Shown here: positions 22,671 through 34,707 of the stretch, one piece after another
Position numbering within the stretch: the first letter of the stretch is position 1
How the letters are laid out: each line of letters starts with the position of its first letter
From: an archaeon
GTDB taxonomy: Archaea; Asgardarchaeota; Thorarchaeia; Thorarchaeales; Thorarchaeaceae
Direction of reading: 5' to 3'
DNA length: 57,736 nucleotides
NCBI GenBank assembly: GCA_024276825.1
Contig: JAJRWI010000062.1
Span: forward strand, 1 to 57,736
Notes under the pieces: model-generated
The model's input: only the letters and a program-made list of their open reading frames with translations
What the model was told of the DNA's origin: nothing
Database searches by the model: none
Translations under genes and position numbers: made by a program

Positions 22671-23903
22671 TTAAAACTCACATTTTGCAAGTAATGGTTT
22701 AAGTCCCAAGTCTTCGATTTTTATTTTGATAGACTCCTCGAATGAGTCCCTGATCTCCGACTCAATCCTCTGCTTGAACTCCTCTACCTTCTCAATGCGT
22801 TTGTTGATCTCATCACGAATTCGAAGTAAGTCGTTTTTGTGATATTCAAGATTCTTACGAGCCTCCTCCAACTGCTCAGACAGTTCTTCGTGGCGGGCAT
22901 ATACATCAGAACCAGCGAAGTTCTTGCGCTTGGAGATTACATCTTTTGCCATGGCCTGCAGCTCATCAAGGGCACCATTTCGGATTGCCTCAATCTCTTC
23001 AATTGTGCGTCTGGCAAGACGGTCCTTCAACTTCAGTCTGCCTGACTCAATTGCCTTTTGAAGTCCTGTAAGACCCTCCATCAGAGCTGGGAGCCCATCT
23101 GGTTCTTCAACTATTGCACTGAATGGGTCTTCAAAATAGTCGGTCAGTGCTCTCTGTCCAGCAGGACCAATTCTCACACCCGTGTCTTGTTGTAGCAGTT
23201 TCTTCACCGGCTTCTTCAAAATGTTCAGTTTCATTCTTAGTAATGATGCAATTCTTTCTGCCTCTTCGTCCAAGTTCAAGATCTCTGAAACATTCGAAGA
23301 CTCTATGAAGGTGTCATAAGCATTCTTTGCTGACTTGTATTCTTCCTGAGCATGCTCAATCTTTATCCGCACTTGCCGGATCTGCTCCTCGAAAATCTCT
23401 TTACCATGGGTAAGATCTCGAAGAGTTTCGATTCTAGACCCAATGCGTTCAAGGTCCTTGACCCAATTGAACTCGTAGAGAAGTTTTGCAATCCTTTTCA
23501 TCTCACGTGAGAGTTCCTTCATGTAAGTATCAAGGGCCTTTATTGTTGACTTGTGTCGTTTGTCCATCCTACGTATCCAACGGGCACCAGCACCCCATAA
23601 TTCTTGGATAAATCGCTGAATTTCATCTTGCATGATTTCAGTGTTTGAGTAGGTCACATCGTTGCGGAGTTCGAAATTCTGCACAATCTCACTGATTTTT
23701 TGTGCAAATCTAGTTGCAATACCCTCATTTTCCATATCCTCATCACTAGATTCTTTCAGTTCATGAGCTATTAGTTCAATGTCTTTTAGAGTTCTCTCCA
23801 CCACTTTGTAACTCTTCTCGGCTTGCTTTACGAACTCCTTTGATTTCTTACTCAGGCGTTTCCGGTACCATTTCTGAAGCTGGTCAATTGTCAATTCAGT
23901 CAT
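22671..23903 (-). CDS. Long alpha-helical/coiled-coil hypothetical protein
   Basis: Charged helical 410-aa ORF with no Walker motifs; start at MTELT. Confidence 0.75.
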   Translation of the reverse strand: MTELTIDQLQKWYRKRLSKKSKEFVKQAEKSYKVVERTLKDIELIAHELKESSDEDMENEGIATRFAQKISEIVQNFELRNDVTYSNTEIMQDEIQRFIQELWGAGARWIRRMDKRHKSTIKALDTYMKELSREMKRIAKLLYEFNWVKDLERIGSRIETLRDLTHGKEIFEEQIRQVRIKIEHAQEEYKSAKNAYDTFIESSNVSEILNLDEEAERIASLLRMKLNILKKPVKKLLQQDTGVRIGPAGQRALTDYFEDPFSAIVEEPDGLPALMEGLTGLQKAIESGRLKLKDRLARRTIEEIEAIRNGALDELQAMAKDVISKRKNFAGSDVYARHEELSEQLEEARKNLEYHKNDLLRIRDEINKRIEKVEEFKQRIESEIRDSFEESIKIKIEDLGLKPLLAKCEF

Positions 23904-24006
23904 TATAACGACACACTCAAATGCTAGTCGCACAATATGAAGCGATTTATCAAGTTTGCTCCAAATCTTGCAACCTTAATGTTTTGGTTCAATGCATTTC
24001 ATCGTA

Positions 24007-24046: not shown

Positions 24047-24850
24047 ATGTATGAAACATTAGATACTGGACGTCGAAGACCCAGACTGGACATGACCTAT
24101 TCGGTCGAATGTTCATCATGAGGAAGAGGTCGCAAAGGGTTCTACATCAAGCGTCTGAGCCTAGTTGATTCTGATGGAGTGGATCGTCTGTTGCTAAGAA
24201 ATCCCACAAGTTACAAGGGAGGGTTTTGGTTCTCCTATTTATTCGATGACTATGTGCAGACGGTACAGTCAATGGAGGGCAAGACAATAGAGGTCTGTAG
24301 CACAAATACCAAGAAGAACAAGTTGACTGTGGTTCTGGAACATGTTCCAAGAGGATACAGGCATTCCGTTGTTCAGTTCACTCTTGAAATCTGGAGCTAC
24401 AACCAGCCCATCATGTTGATGCGTCATAAGACTAAGAACATCTGGCGGGACAAGATTGTAGATGCCAAGTTGTATAATATTATGGACTTTGACATCGGGG
24501 GTCCAAGAAGCTACAAGGACGATTATGGAGAGTATGACATACAATCGAGTGTTATGACTCTCTACGACAACAACCCGCTGTGCGTCTGCATGACTTCTAG
24601 GCCCAAGCCACACAGATGGGACATTTTACCTCCGGCTAAGATTAAGATTGATGAGAACCGACGCGACCTAAATAATGGAGTTTCTCTGGGACCCAAGGAT
24701 GTTGCATCTGCCCTACAATGGGACTTAGGAAACCTTGAGCCTGGTGATGAACGGTCCGTGGAGATGGTAGTTGTTGCATCAGGAACAAGGGAGAATTCAT
24801 CAGAACTCCTGGAGAAAGCATGGGAACTCTTTGACAAGAAGATGCAATGA
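24047..24850 (+). CDS. Putative selenoprotein (267 aa, C22-S-S-U25) with beta-rich C-terminal domain
   Basis: ORF 24179-24850 extends in frame upstream through a single TGA (24119-24121) to ATG 24047: MYETLDTGRRRPRLDMTYSVECSS-U-GRGRKGFYIKRLSLVDSDGVDRLLL; CxxU motif; SECIS-like hairpin at the 3' end. Confidence 0.78.
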
Positions 24851-24918
24851 TGGGAATCGTTAAACCATTGGGATTCTCTGAGCCGAGGGTAGCACCTGGG
24901 TTCTTGTCAAGAGCTCCC
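24822..24918 (+). promoter_or_regulatory. Eukaryote/Asgard-type SECIS-like element
   Basis: AUGA (24847-50), GGGAAUC pairing with GAUUCUC, AAA 11 nt after AUGA, 3' UGAG (24879-82); long basal stem GGGAACUCUUUGACAAGAA / UUCUUGUCAAGAGCUCCC. Confidence 0.72.
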
Positions 24919-24939
24919 TAATTTGTTGTTTTAAGCTCA

Positions 24940-25347
24940 TTATCTTATCACACATGGGGTCTTGCAAGAGTTCCGTAGATGTGTGACAAGCATTATTCCG
25001 GGCTCGGTCATCTCAGCCTTGACTCCTTTGTTGTTCTCATTGCCACCCTTGACAAGCCCGAGCCGGATCAACTCCCTAAGGTTCCATTTCACTGTACTAT
25101 AGGGAAGACCGCTTTTCCTAGAAACTTGGTCTGCCAGTCCCGTGATTGTGTAGCTGTCATACTTTAGCATTTGCGCACATGAACACAGAACTGTCTTCTG
25201 TGTCCTGCTTAGCTTTGTTTCTGCAAACACAAGGAATGTGTTGACCAAAGTCTCAAAAAATTGCCATGAAGAATTCAGTTCGTTCTCTTCGCGAGCCTTA
25301 TACCCACTGGAGAACAAGTCCACCTCGTGAGTGGATTTGACACTCAC
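24940..25347 (-). CDS. Winged-helix DNA-binding protein
   Basis: LSRTQKTVL...TITGLADQVSRKSGLPYSTVKWNLRELIRLGLVKGG...AEMTEPG; start uncertain. Confidence 0.75.
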   Translation of the reverse strand: MSVKSTHEVDLFSSGYKAREENELNSSWQFFETLVNTFLVFAETKLSRTQKTVLCSCAQMLKYDSYTITGLADQVSRKSGLPYSTVKWNLRELIRLGLVKGGNENNKGVKAEMTEPGIMLVTHLRNSCKTPCVIR

Positions 25348-30441: not shown

Positions 30442-30522
30442 ATGCAAGACTCCTAATATTAGATGAGTGTGACCGCTTATGTGAGCATCATCATCATAGG
30501 CACTACTTACTACTGAAGCTTA

Positions 30523-32280
30523 CTATTCATGACATTCAATCGCCTTACTCAACTCGTCTAATACGCGCTTCTTTAATGACTCGATATCTCGAGCCTGGGC
30601 ATCAATTGAAACCTCTTGCAGGAGCTTGTGCTTCCGGTCGTATGTCAGAGTTATCGCTGCTAAATGAACACCATTATTATCATGCATATTGTATAGAACG
30701 CGGACAGTTTCTCTGTCGACTAGAAATTCCTCATCCATTGATATAACGTCCTTCTTCGATAGGAATTCTTCTATTGCTTCGGGATCGCATTTCATATTTA
30801 TTGAGATTCTCACAAGGTGATTGCGTTCAACACGGGACTTTATCCAGTCCATTCCTTTCTTTAATATTATGACAATAATAAGCCACATTAGTGCACTTAG
30901 AAAGAAGAAGAGAAATTGGAATTCGGGATTCATGGCCAAAGCTGATAATGGTGTATTATATTCGCCCACGATTGCAACAATGATGTCAAAAGCAATTGAT
31001 CCTGAAAGGATGAGTTCAATCACATTAAGAGCGTCGCCCGTACGCTCGCTAGCTCTAATGACTTCACTTGTGCTTCTTGTGTTATCACGTAAGGCATTGT
31101 ATACACGACGCATTTGTTGTTCAATCTGTGTTGAGAGTAAGGTCTGAAGGCCTTCAACCTCGCTGGAAAGACTCTGAAGTACAAGTCCAACATCATTGAT
31201 TCGTTTCAAAAGGGAAGTGAGTGAGTGATCAATCTGTATTGCATTTCGCAAAGATGTGTTTGTGCTGTCCTTAATCTGGTGCCAGCGTTCATAGATCAAC
31301 TCAAAGCCCCGATCCAAATAACTCACTGTTGAGTTCAGAATGGTGAAGTTTGCAGTTGCCTCAGTCAGAATGTTCTGTGCACGCGTAATTACAGAATAAT
31401 CTCCTTCAGAGGTCTTTTCAATCAGCTTGCGGGCCTGAAACAATTCATCCCAGAGTAGTTCAAGTCTATGAAACAGGCTGTCAATAAATATCTCTGCACT
31501 TTTCAAGAGTGAGTAAAAGGTGACAAGTAATTCATATTTTTCAGATTCTTTTGTAATGATTATAATGCCTGCATCGCCAATAAAAGCAATAGTTCCATCT
31601 TCTTCATTCTTGTGAACAAGCTGAAGATTATCAATAAGTTGTTCCATTTCATTCTGATACTCTTCACCATCAGCATAATCATTCACATCATCAAAGTGGG
31701 GATCTATAATATCAGCGATTATGCCAACGAATTTGTATCTGCTTGTTGGAGTGCCCTTGAATATGCAATCAATTATGCGCCGTTGGTGATGAGTAATGAG
31801 CGTGTCCATCAGAAGTGATGAGTCATTCATTAGATCCACAACTATCCTTGCTATGTGGTCCAAAGAAAACTGAGGGGTCCCATTCTCAACACGGTCATAT
31901 ATTCTCGTAATTTGGGCACCATATATGACATGACCTTCATGACTAAAGAACATCCCAATGACTTCTTCTTGTTCAACTACATCATCGGGATCCTGCATAG
32001 ATGCTTCGCAGGACAAGTAGTCTGAACCAAGACTATCTACCACTCTTACGCTATTACACCATGGCTCAGAAACAAATGTGGTGCTCTCAGGGAAATGGTC
32101 CATCAACATAGTAACAAATTCGCCATGCAGGGTTCGCTTTGACATGAGCTTTTGACCAATTGATTCAAGAGTGTTGCGATCGCATGGGATCAGCTCACTA
32201 AGTATTATGCGAACATTTCCCAATTTTATAGATTCAAGAAGATCATCTTTTATATAATCATCACCCAACAATTCAGTCAT
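30523..32280 (-). CDS. CorA/RMD1-like membrane protein (large soluble domain, long helices, two C-terminal TMs, no GMN motif)
   Basis: Helical stalk followed by NVIELILSGSIAFDIIVAIVG and FLFFFLSALMWLIIVIIL; overlaps the upstream stop. Confidence 0.55.
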   Translation of the reverse strand: MTELLGDDYIKDDLLESIKLGNVRIILSELIPCDRNTLESIGQKLMSKRTLHGEFVTMLMDHFPESTTFVSEPWCNSVRVVDSLGSDYLSCEASMQDPDDVVEQEEVIGMFFSHEGHVIYGAQITRIYDRVENGTPQFSLDHIARIVVDLMNDSSLLMDTLITHHQRRIIDCIFKGTPTSRYKFVGIIADIIDPHFDDVNDYADGEEYQNEMEQLIDNLQLVHKNEEDGTIAFIGDAGIIIITKESEKYELLVTFYSLLKSAEIFIDSLFHRLELLWDELFQARKLIEKTSEGDYSVITRAQNILTEATANFTILNSTVSYLDRGFELIYERWHQIKDSTNTSLRNAIQIDHSLTSLLKRINDVGLVLQSLSSEVEGLQTLLSTQIEQQMRRVYNALRDNTRSTSEVIRASERTGDALNVIELILSGSIAFDIIVAIVGEYNTPLSALAMNPEFQFLFFFLSALMWLIIVIILKKGMDWIKSRVERNHLVRISINMKCDPEAIEEFLSKKDVISMDEEFLVDRETVRVLYNMHDNNGVHLAAITLTYDRKHKLLQEVSIDAQARDIESLKKRVLDELSKAIECHE

Positions 32281-32857
32281 CACCCTTCTTTCCAGACATG
32301 AACCATTTGAAATCAAATGATGGGAGATATGGTCTTGTGGCATAGGGCACATCTTCAATATCATCAATGCCTATTTTCTGCTCGTAGCCGCATGATTCGC
32401 AATGGTAGAATATCTTATGATTCTTAATTATGACCTGAAAAATGGTGTCGCAGGTTTTGCATAATATTATACTGCGCACTTCATCACGTATCTTTTGCGG
32501 AATGTTCTTTATTGCCCTTTTACCAAGTTCGGTAGGACGATAAGCGGTGACATAGCCATATTGAGATGTGCTGATTCGTAGAATTGAAATGAGTCTAAGG
32601 TTTAGAAGGTCTTCAACATCGTCTTTACCCTCTCTACTTACATTCATCCATTGACGGGTCCCGTCAAGCATAGGAACGCTCCATGGTGCATAATCATAGT
32701 CTTTGAATATGCCCTTAATTATTCCATCATATATTATTGCAAGGATTGGTAGCTCCTTCACCCAGATTGGATTCTCTTCGTCGCCCTTCTTTGTATACTG
32801 GTCAATGACAAAGAGCAATCTCATTTGATCTTCTGTCAATTCAGACTCCATCGCCAT
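32273..32857 (-). CDS. Hypothetical protein, winged-helix-like with C-terminal zinc ribbon
   Basis: YDGIIKGIFKDYDYAP, NVSREGKDDVEDL, YRPTELG, CKTC...CESC. Confidence 0.75.
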   Translation of the reverse strand: MAMESELTEDQMRLLFVIDQYTKKGDEENPIWVKELPILAIIYDGIIKGIFKDYDYAPWSVPMLDGTRQWMNVSREGKDDVEDLLNLRLISILRISTSQYGYVTAYRPTELGKRAIKNIPQKIRDEVRSIILCKTCDTIFQVIIKNHKIFYHCESCGYEQKIGIDDIEDVPYATRPYLPSFDFKWFMSGKKGDD

Positions 32858-32934
32858 CCACTCGGCCTAGGGCAAATAATAACATGCAAAGTTCCTAAAA
32901 ACAATTTCTGAATAATTCGACCGCGAATTAATTC

Positions 32935-34707
32935 TCATGGTTTTATCTCATAAAGCCAAAGAGTGAATTTAGTGCCAAGATCAGGCCTGTCTGCGATTCT
33001 GTTCTCAACCTCGAGTCTGCCGCCATATTTCTTGGCAATCTGTGAAACAAGAGTAAGGCCAACACCGCCAAAGCGCCGCTTTTTGTCAAATATCACTTTC
33101 TTCTTAGAAGGAGAGATGCCAGGACCATTATCAGCAATAGAGATTCCAATCATTGCAGATTTTCGCTTGAATGAAACCCAGATGTGCTTGTCCTTTTTGG
33201 GGTTATGTGATGCAGCATTCTCAAGCAAGTTCCATATCAACTCACCAAAAAGCATATCTGCATTGACATAGATGGGTTCTGTTTGCTTTTTCATATGTAT
33301 TGTGGCACCAAAGATGCGCTTTACTACTGCGATTTTCTCGTTCAGAATCTGTGTCAAGTCTATGACTTCCATGGGAATGTCCCTTATCTGACTGGCACGT
33401 TTCACTTTTGTAATAAGCCGATTGCACAGCTGCACTGCATCCATTATGTTCTTCTGAACATCAGGAATCAATGATGGAGGGATGTCAGAGTCCAGCATTC
33501 CCGATGCAGTGAGGATAATCTGGAGTTGATTTGCAATGTCATGCGTCAAAAGGTCCAGATAGAATTGTGTTGTATCTTGAAACTCCTTTAAATCGGTAAT
33601 GTCTGTCACAACAGCAAAGGACCCCTTGAACTCGCCATCTGCATCAAAGTAAGGAGCTGCTGATATGATTGTGTAGAGAATGCTTCCATCTTTTCTTACG
33701 AATGAAGCATGATATCGCTCAGATTTACCATTCATTCTGTCAATCAGGCGTTGCTTCGCCTGCTCTTCAACAATATCTGGTGAATAAACAAACCAAGGCT
33801 GTCCAACAAGCTCTTTTTCAGAATAACCCAGCATTTTGCAATATGCTTCATTCACAAATATGACCAAGTCTTTCTCATCACATATGGCAAACCCTTCATT
33901 CATCGCCTCTACGAGAAGACGATACCATCTCTCTTTTTCCTCAAGACTCTTGATTGTTGTTTCATATTCTGTTATATCAAGAAAATGAATAGCTGTCATT
34001 TGCCCTATGATTGGGCAATTTGCGAATTTAGCATTGATATCAACAATTGCCTTCTTTCCACCCTTGCCAACAATTTCAATCTGATAGGATTCAGGAACTG
34101 GGTTATTGGACCGTCTCAAGAGGTTTATGTCGATCAATGATGAACTGAGATCGGGTGGCAAAATGCTTCTAAAGTCCTGATTGAGGATTTCGTTCTTCTT
34201 GAATCCAGACTGTTTGAAGAACTTCTTTGATGCAAATTCAATCTTGAAGTCTTCATTGAATAATATCATAATGTCATGTGTGTTTTCAATGATGAGGTCC
34301 AAGAGTCTGTCAGTGACTGGAAGTATGCCATTAAGAGGAGATGGCGGACTTGGATCAAGCAGAAATGCATATATGAAGGAGAAGGTCTTGGTGGGACGCT
34401 TGCATATCATCCTGAAAACTTGGCTCTTCTTTTTCTTTCTTGATTGCAATCTGATAAGAGGTATCTCCACCTCAATTCTTGACTTCAACTTTGAAAAGCT
34501 TGAGGACAGAGCGTCAGTATCTTCAGCTCGAATGAATTCATCGAGATTGAGGTCCATGTCTTTTTTTGATACCCCCAGAAGATTCCTAGCCTTTGCATTC
34601 AAGGAGAGTATCTTATGATTGATGTCCATGATCATAAATGCAATAGGCAAGTTCTCAGCAAACCCCGCCAAGGTTTCTGATTCTGCTTTTGAAGGGGGTA
34701 TTTTCAT
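32935..34707 (-). CDS. Cytoplasmic multi-PAS histidine kinase
   Basis: Three PAS repeats; H-box LLTHDIANQL, N-box NLLENA, DNGPG, GVGL. Confidence 0.92.
   Translation of the reverse strand: MKIPPSKAESETLAGFAENLPIAFMIMDINHKILSLNAKARNLLGVSKKDMDLNLDEFIRAEDTDALSSSFSKLKSRIEVEIPLIRLQSRKKKKSQVFRMICKRPTKTFSFIYAFLLDPSPPSPLNGILPVTDRLLDLIIENTHDIMILFNEDFKIEFASKKFFKQSGFKKNEILNQDFRSILPPDLSSSLIDINLLRRSNNPVPESYQIEIVGKGGKKAIVDINAKFANCPIIGQMTAIHFLDITEYETTIKSLEEKERWYRLLVEAMNEGFAICDEKDLVIFVNEAYCKMLGYSEKELVGQPWFVYSPDIVEEQAKQRLIDRMNGKSERYHASFVRKDGSILYTIISAAPYFDADGEFKGSFAVVTDITDLKEFQDTTQFYLDLLTHDIANQLQIILTASGMLDSDIPPSLIPDVQKNIMDAVQLCNRLITKVKRASQIRDIPMEVIDLTQILNEKIAVVKRIFGATIHMKKQTEPIYVNADMLFGELIWNLLENAASHNPKKDKHIWVSFKRKSAMIGISIADNGPGISPSKKKVIFDKKRRFGGVGLTLVSQIAKKYGGRLEVENRIADRPDLGTKFTLWLYEIKP

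Follow-up and report, generated by a model that had tools for sequence, protein, structure and literature searches.

We here describe an RNA element in the genome of an archaeon of the Thorarchaeaceae (Asgardarchaeota). The stretch analysed, called the window below, is the whole contig JAJRWI010000062.1 of GenBank assembly GCA_024276825.1 (57,736 nucleotides, forward strand); it is contig 56 of the source assembly, G000, which comprises 2.9 Mb and is 98% complete. The element, at 24822-24918, is very probably a functional selenocysteine insertion sequence (SECIS) of the eukaryote-like type I of Asgard archaea (no apical ministem), which, judged from sequence and comparison, would direct selenocysteine (Sec) to the UGA at codon 25 of the gene whose 3' end it overlaps. 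An earlier note on this DNA, made from the letters alone, had read the element as a eukaryote-like SECIS with the gene's own stop codon as part of its core. This reading is now strongly supported by covariation, by restriction to Sec genes and by recurrence of the same design in SelD. The kink-turn RNA with its AAA loop is conserved, and it accompanies specifically those genes that have a UGA in frame.

The host gene was translated with TGA as U. The open reading frame (ORF) contains a single in-frame TGA, at which the motif E-C-S-S-U-G is read. The ORF caller had listed the gene as 24179..24850, i.e., downstream of the Sec codon.

24047-24850, plus strand: predicted selenoprotein gene, start ATG at 24047, 267 codons plus UGA stop
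24119-24121, plus strand: predicted Sec codon UGA, codon 25, in a CxxU motif; invariant in 20 orthologs

An in-frame UGA had been predicted some 730 nt upstream of the stop; it lies at 24119-21, and the distance is 729 nt. A six-frame search of 40 related genomes detected the host gene in 21 of the 24 genomes of the same family, the full-length copies being 39-56% identical. Each ortholog that spans codon 25 (about 20, all Thorarchaeia) has exactly one in-frame TGA, and has it there. The 24 codons upstream of it are conserved among orthologs. Public entries of the family are named “hypothetical protein”, have mostly some 234-238 residues and begin after the Sec codon; the public calls P0002-P0037, set against ORF 24179-24850, comprise 192-239 residues rather than 267. 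One public entry, P0049, shows W at the Sec position; there, the TGA has thus been translated as tryptophan. A profile search retrieved distant homologs that span the site (P0058, P0081, P0153, P0063 and P0091). In all five, U25 is aligned with the second cysteine of a CxxC, and both columns are invariant, which makes the pair CxxU/CxxC a classic Sec/Cys signature. The gene thus displays what is expected of a selenoprotein gene: a UGA aligned to cysteine, a reading frame conserved on both sides of it and a SECIS. By these features it represents a Thorarchaeia-restricted selenoprotein family that is apparently undescribed, the latter attribute being provisional with regard to the parts of the literature compared.

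An AlphaFold2 model of the protein built on a 20-sequence alignment (pLDDT 93, pTM 0.91) predicts an all-beta supersandwich with a C-terminal helix and places the CxxU on the loop of a beta-hairpin. Foldseek relates the model to the supersandwich N-terminal domains of GH94 phosphorylases, GH116 enzymes and GalM-type aldose epimerases (E ~1e-8, TMq 0.5-0.72, identity ~10-14%); a Pfam search with the host protein yielded no significant match. A redox or metal-binding role of the CxxU is our guess.

The genome is equipped for Sec decoding. The genes for PSTK, tRNA-Sec, SepSecS and SelB are clustered within about 4 kb of contig 4 of G000 (30452-34676):

30452-31135: PSTK
31217-31303: tRNA-Sec, 62.6 bits, above the Rfam cut-off
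32012-33280: SepSecS
33846-34676: SelB/EFSec

SelD, on contig 81, carries an in-frame TGA itself. The VhuD/FlpD and NiFe hydrogenase genes of G000 have no in-frame TGA within the matched regions and provided no extra SECIS examples. In three genomes of the family the host gene was not found. One of them, G004 (92% complete), was screened for the Sec machinery: matches to SepSecS and SelD above cut-off are absent there as well. In three other genomes (G008:C8:32609-33535, G013:C7:33975-34898 and G023:C194:17390-18316) the only strong SelD match is free of an in-frame TGA; it belongs to an open frame of about 750 residues, a fused non-Sec form. SepSecS and the new Sec gene are present in these three Thorarchaeia genomes, which may encode very few selenoproteins besides that of the host family.

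The element itself was folded with RNAfold over 24815-24925. The minimum free energy (MFE) of -38.2 kcal/mol is equalled by one of 200 shuffles (z -3.1). Together with the comparison of orthologs, the fold leads to the following architecture:

24822-24839, plus strand: basal helix I, 5' strand, inside the coding sequence (CDS); from MFE fold and duplex energies
24843-24845, plus strand: kink-turn C-stem, 5' strand U-G-C; C24845 invariant
24846-24850, plus strand: kink-turn bulge A-A-U and G.A tandem; the UGA stop is 24848-50, the AUGA 24847-50
24852-24858, plus strand: helix II (upper stem), 5' strand GGGAAUC; from covariation
24859-24871, plus strand: apical loop, 13 nt, with AAA at 24862-64
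24872-24878, plus strand: helix II, 3' strand GAUUCUC; from covariation
24880-24884, plus strand: 3' G-A of the tandem sheared pairs (24880-81) and C-stem 3' strand G-C-C (24882-84)
24885-24899, plus strand: hairpin 2, GGG/CCC-type stem with NAGCAC loop, between the kink-turn and the 3' strand of helix I
24902-24918, plus strand: basal helix I, 3' strand, in the 3' untranslated region (3'UTR); from MFE fold and duplex energies
24922-24932, plus strand: T-rich tract TTTGTTGTTTT just past the element; read from the sequence

Much of this had been seen by eye. The AUGA at 24847-50 does contain the gene's own stop, the ORF ending at 24850; the 7-bp helix GGGAAUC/GAUUCUC is where it had been drawn (24852-58 with 24872-78), and AAA follows AUGA after 11 nt. 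One detail had to be amended. The partner of the tandem G.A had been sought in UGAG at 24879-82; its location and the sheared pairs hold, yet the conserved G24882 has the invariant C24845 as its partner instead of U24848. This makes the motif a canonical kink-turn whose 3-nt bulge reads A-A-U. The basal stem, drawn with about 18 bp and partly within the CDS, does join the last ~6 codons to the 3'UTR, and has 16 bp in the RNAfold structure (24822-39 with 24902-18). Hairpin 2, lying between kink-turn and basal stem, creates a three-way junction. An apical ministem of 2 bp (GC..GC, or CC..GG in the window) was considered; it is not found in all orthologs, and no claim is made for it.

The published model of Asgard type I elements (PMC11227280) comprises a core GA_[G/A]A, preferably after AU or GU, an upper stem of 7-15 bp with no more than 2 mismatches, an apical loop of 8-20 nt with unpaired adenines on its 5' side, and a position between -30 and +600 nt relative to the 3' end of a gene with a Sec-UGA. 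In the window, the core is made of AUGA 24847-50 and GA 24880-81, the upper stem has 7 bp (no mismatch, one G.U), the loop has 13 nt with AAA (24862-64) on its 5' side, and the element overlaps the stop of the UGA-25 gene in a genome with Sec machinery.

The RNA comparison comprised 20 full-length orthologs. Their stop is TGA in 19 of 20 cases, as compared to 40% TGA among the stops of long ORFs in G000; in the alignment, the T, G and A of the terminal UGA are unchanged in all 20. The preceding base is A in 17 orthologs (AUGA) and G in three (GUGA), and the C three bases ahead of the U is invariant. In helix II, RNAalifold and pair counts reveal compensatory changes at all 8 of 8 pairs, with 90% of the cells paired. 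None of 500 column shuffles matched the observed covariation, and pairing fell from 87% to 40-49% when the partners were slid by 1-3 columns. The covariation that the earlier note had named as a check is thus present, and an element conserved and covarying in 20 orthologs in this way exceeds chance.

The kink-turn is equally well preserved. Across the orthologs, its C-stem has the consensus U-N-C with G-N-A, the bulge is N-A/G-U, and the tandem is G.A/A.G. The C-G pair 30-70 is intact in 20 of 20 sequences; pair 29-71 is intact in 15 (in seven of these it is altered on both sides), and pair 28-72 in 16. The apical loop opens with G-U-A-A-A-G-C in most orthologs, its AA being invariant and the third A nearly so, and AA is spaced 11 nt from AUGA in 17 of the 19 orthologs scanned. 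After the upper stem follows N-G-A-G, in which neither the A nor the G behind it varies; the first G is kept in 18 of 20. A strict scan gave upper stems of 6-10 bp and apical loops spanning 8-17 nt. Two orthologs, the deviant L017 and L018, account for the 6-bp stems; L024 yielded no match in this stem/loop scan. In the two deviant elements, which stem from the same genus (L017:2267-2378, L018:1421-1532), the upper stem is followed by UAG, as opposed to GAG in all other orthologs; the 3' G.A pair may have been substituted, or else the register has moved by 3 nt.

The basal stem is poorly alignable and was therefore tested through duplex energies. Cognate strands of helix I form duplexes averaging -18.4 kcal/mol, non-cognate ones -11.9 kcal/mol (20 orthologs, permutation p<5e-5); in about five orthologs helix I is weak. 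Hairpin 2 covaries at 4 of 5 pairs.

The sharing of bases between RNA core and reading frame leaves its trace in the protein. The last sense codon is C-N-R throughout (24845-24847 in the window), because it supplies the C at position -1b of the kink-turn and two of the bulge bases. Due to this RNA constraint, the C-terminal residue of the orthologs is always Q, R or P. In L025 (1404-1515, minus strand; genome G006), a 1-nt frame difference just ahead of the core puts its GUGA out of frame; the ORF is 5 codons longer and ends at the UAA within the apical-loop sequence GUAAAG, the SECIS being otherwise complete. This may be a real variant or a sequencing error of the metagenome-assembled genome (MAG).

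The same design is met in a second gene. In G000 the SelD gene ends with CCG-UGA; its element has the stem AUCUUCC/GGAGGAU, a loop starting with UAAAC, then UGAGGA and a hairpin GCUGC/GCAGC, after which CGGUCUC pairs with GAGACCG in the CDS to form the basal stem. Sec-type SelD genes were compared in 19 Thorarchaeia genomes (G000 and 18 relatives). All 19 stop with TGA; the base ahead of it is A or G, in one case C. All 19 have the modules UCC / C-R-U / GA ... GA / GGA in the register of the host gene. Covariation extends over the upper stem, hairpin 2 and 3 of 7 basal-stem pairs, and each of the 19 has an analogous hairpin with an NGCRA loop. SelD has P as its C-terminal residue (CCA or CCG) in all but two genomes, where it is L (CTA) or R (CGA). 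Over these two unrelated families, stop and core overlap in 38 of 39 genes, always in the single frame register [CNR][UGA].

A scan of G000 with a relaxed pattern returned 124 matches, as compared to 65 in a reversed-sequence control; alone it is noisy, and it becomes informative only in combination with an in-frame ORF test. When the matches are sorted by how long an ORF terminates at the core UGA, SelD and the host gene take the first two places, and only they have a long ORF there. Their ORFs are bounded upstream by an in-frame UGA, ahead of which 43 and 35 more codons, respectively, are open. All other matches are nonsense frames, among them the next candidates, C49, C33, C73 and C77, which were rejected.

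The counterpart of this coincidence is the behaviour of homologs that do without Sec. Five genes of distant non-Sec homologs (L086, L087, L089, L090 and L029) all stop at TAA or TAG, and none of the five has AUGA at the stop. The first four have CxxC aligned to the CxxU; L029 lacks the segment. Their 3' ends fold like shuffles (z -1.3 to +1.3, as compared to -3.3 for the element of the host gene). The loss of the hairpin in cysteine-type orthologs, which the earlier note had listed as a check, is thus borne out by the distant CxxC homologs. Conversely, no ortholog was found that has the hairpin and is devoid of the Sec UGA. L029, in genome G032, deserves a comment: its AT-rich 3' flank displays AUGA...AAA...GA to the eye, yet there is no fold (z -0.2), and a TGA that lies in frame 7 codons before its ATG has no start codon ahead of it and is not a Sec codon. 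A bacterial-type SECIS hairpin right after the Sec codon was also looked for; it was not found in the 63 nt from UGA-25 of the 20 orthologs, where the mean z is -0.15, as compared to -2.63 for the 3' element.

Some observations speak against a SECIS, or at least limit our confidence. No SECIS family of Rfam matches at gathering threshold in the whole window, nor at E<=10 between 24000 and 25000, and the model search that the earlier note had listed as a check thus gave no hit; the failure is expected, since no standard SECIS tool detects the Lokiarchaeal elements (PMC4989117). The C-stem of the window has only 2 bp, and the MFE fold draws 24882-84 into a longer hairpin 2. The orthologs are kin, and counts such as 19/20 overstate their independence. 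A covariance model, R1, built on a 19-sequence core alignment and applied to G000 (150 of 743 candidates scored), finds only the host-gene element (35 bits) and misses the SECIS of SelD; the two elements thus share architecture, not sequence, and R1 is too family-specific. Finally, Sec incorporation in Thorarchaeia is predicted from sequences, and the way in which translation stops at the terminal UGA is a proposal.

How the two UGA codons might be told apart can be envisaged as follows. The last sense codon C-N-R forms positions -1b, L1 and L2 of the kink-turn, and the stop UGA forms L3, the last bulge base, and both sheared purines. A SECIS-bound factor and SelB, the Sec elongation factor, would bring Sec-tRNA to ribosomes that have reached the distant UGA-25. 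Once the terminal UGA occupies the A site, in contrast, the ribosome would have melted helix I and the C-stem and would hold the 5' strand of the upper stem in its mRNA channel. With the SECIS unfolded by the ribosome itself, a release factor would terminate. Termination at this place fits the sequences: the next in-frame stop is 2-123 codons away, there is no conserved extension, and the downstream bases evolve as RNA pairs.

The latter facts also bear on the possibility that the terminal UGA is itself read as Sec to an appreciable extent, yielding an extended or Sec-terminated isoform and making the overlap a case of dual coding. Occasional read-through would be compatible with the data, and in L025 the frame crosses the core to reach the UAA in the apical loop, i.e., ribosomes can traverse the core. 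Against it stand the absence of a conserved extension and downstream bases that evolve as pairs, not as codons; by published reasoning, moreover, a SECIS needs a minimum distance from the UGA it serves (PMC4989117). We consider dual coding unlikely. Still less can be said for a kink-turn with some other task and no link to Sec, be it L7Ae-dependent translational control or a C/D-box-like sRNA. The core certainly has the form of a canonical kink-turn, and the AUGAUG...CUGA of the window looks like C and D boxes. There are also sub-threshold Rfam matches to C/D-box sRNAs nearby inside the CDS (24644-24769, plus strand; sR35 with E 0.35, sR23 with E 2.1), which are far below gathering and most likely due to chance; on the element itself Rfam finds neither a C/D family nor any other. 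The sequence past AUGA is variable and covaries as a helix, which leaves no room for a guide, a C' or a D' box; the set of C, D', C' and D boxes with guides is accordingly not seen in the element. The fixed-spacing AAA is specific to SECIS elements by the published account (PMC4989117). In two families and 39 genes, the element occurs strictly together with a UGA in frame, and the scan of G000 found no such element at the end of a long ORF without one. This alternative is very unlikely.

A further alternative would be a transcription terminator or an mRNA-stabilising stem between the convergent genes 24047-24850 (plus) and 24940-25347 (minus). The hairpin does fill their 89-nt gap, its stem is stable at -38 kcal/mol, and the T-rich tract at 24922-32, likely an archaeal termination signal by its composition, comes next. 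Archaeal transcription termination depends on oligo-T, though, and this tract sits separately, downstream of the element. A terminator would not keep an unpaired AUGA, AAA and GAG or an invariant C-G while its stems covary; nor would it be confined to Sec-encoding genes and missing from the cysteine homologs, and SelD bears a like element in other genomic contexts. The idea is hardly tenable. The preferred reading thus remains a SECIS of the Asgard type serving UGA-25.

A bolder composite goes beyond it, and we regard it as doubtful in its entirety: that the register lock [CNR][UGA] is a selected device and not an accident of compaction, that the extra hairpin docks an archaeal counterpart of SBP2, that the host gene adds an eighth Asgard family, and that its product is, as modelled, a galactose-mutarotase-like supersandwich with the CxxU on a beta-hairpin. 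If true, the lock would guarantee the stop at the second UGA and reset the SECIS with each terminating ribosome.

Upstream in the window lies a divergent gene for a 420-aa coiled-coil protein (22671-23933, minus strand). The convergent ORF at 24940-25347 (minus strand, 135 aa) has weak winged-helix matches, TrmB and HTH_24, with E ~1e-3, below the Pfam cut-offs. In other Asgard lineages, a gene for a small GTPase of the Arf/Ras/Roc/RagA type is found directly upstream of non-Sec homologs (L089:439-2451, L090:526-2469, L029:74-2079), of which L089 and L090 are CxxC forms and L029 is the one without the CxxU segment.

The implications are of a practical and a more general nature. Asgard SECIS elements have been proposed to bridge archaeal and eukaryotic Sec decoding, and the locus adds a well-supported SECIS in a gene family that is not among the seven for Asgard selenoproteins in the literature compared. 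Public annotation cuts this family short at the Sec codon, and for Thorarchaeia a simple rule can be offered to annotate Sec genes: a C-N-R codon, a UGA stop and then a stem with AAA. In one Asgard family, core and stop share three bases in a fixed register in almost every selenoprotein gene examined, and the sharing limits even the C-terminal amino acid. The conserved extra hairpin could guide the hunt for a SECIS-binding factor.

It remains to compare the element with known systems. Eukaryote-like SECIS elements were known in Loki-, Thor- and other Asgard archaea (PMC4989117, PMC11227280), and the published surveys did not find SBP2 in Asgard archaea (same sources). Mariotti et al. (2016) reported that AUGA doubles as stop in VhuU.1 of Lokiarchaeota and also published the minimal-distance argument for termination there (PMC4989117); according to Huang et al. 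(2024), stop codons of the UGA type “often overlap” with AUGA in Lokiarchaeia (PMC11227280). In view of these two reports, the central claim of the earlier note is correct but not new. With the Lokiarchaeal elements, the present one shares an AUGA ahead of the stem and a GA behind it, an apical loop that opens A-rich, and a location where the CDS ends or overlapping that end; it is missed by Rfam, as lokiSECIS is by standard SECIS tools. It differs from them in a stem of 7-9 bp and a loop of ~13 nt, mostly opening with G-U-A-A-A-G-C; in lokiSECIS, the stem always has 9 bp and the loop has 11 nt, the first of which are AAAAA (PMC4989117). Further differences are the near-universal overlap of stop and core, the extra hairpin and another host family. 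The homology-based survey of Huang et al. arrived at seven Asgard families, SelD, FrhA, HdrA, FrhD, Prx-like, AhpF-N and DsbA-like (PMC11227280); a review of 2026 likewise lists only seven. Their Thorarchaeia frhA loop, G[U/G]AAA, matches the loop of the host gene, and their Thorarchaeia selD core, GUGA_GA, with the lower stem G[A/U]G_C[U/A]C, matches our SelD elements. Their main text, in contrast, describes neither the second hairpin nor the frame register, the host family is outside their seven, and the names of the contigs with our orthologs do not occur in their supplements as far as these were compared (PMC11227280).

With eukaryotic SECIS (RF00031, SECIS_1), the element has in common AUGA...AA...GA, the tandem sheared G.A, the 11-nt spacing from AUGA to AA, the two stems and, here as a prediction, the effect on a remote UGA from the mRNA's 3' end. 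The eukaryotic kink-turn, however, is bound by SBP2 and resides in a long 3'UTR, whereas the present element overlaps the CDS, has an extra hairpin and does not match Rfam. The euryarchaeal eaSECIS of Methanococcales is likewise situated in the 3'UTR near the stop and works with archaeal PSTK, SepSecS and SelB, yet it is built from an asymmetric GAA_A bulge that separates a GC-rich lower stem from a GC-only 3-bp upper stem; neither this bulge nor this upper stem is present in the conserved structure here, which has a G.A/A.G kink-turn instead. The canonical kink-turn of the Kt-7 type, as in archaeal L7Ae sites, shares the C-stem ending in C-G, the 3-nt bulge, the tandem G.A/A.G and the non-canonical stem; as opposed to the L7Ae sites of C/D sRNAs, our element has no C', D' or guides, and its C-stem opens into a three-way junction. 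Against this background, and as judged from the main texts and part of the supplements, what appears to be new is the selenoprotein family, the fixed register of kink-turn and reading frame across an archaeal family, and the extra hairpin.

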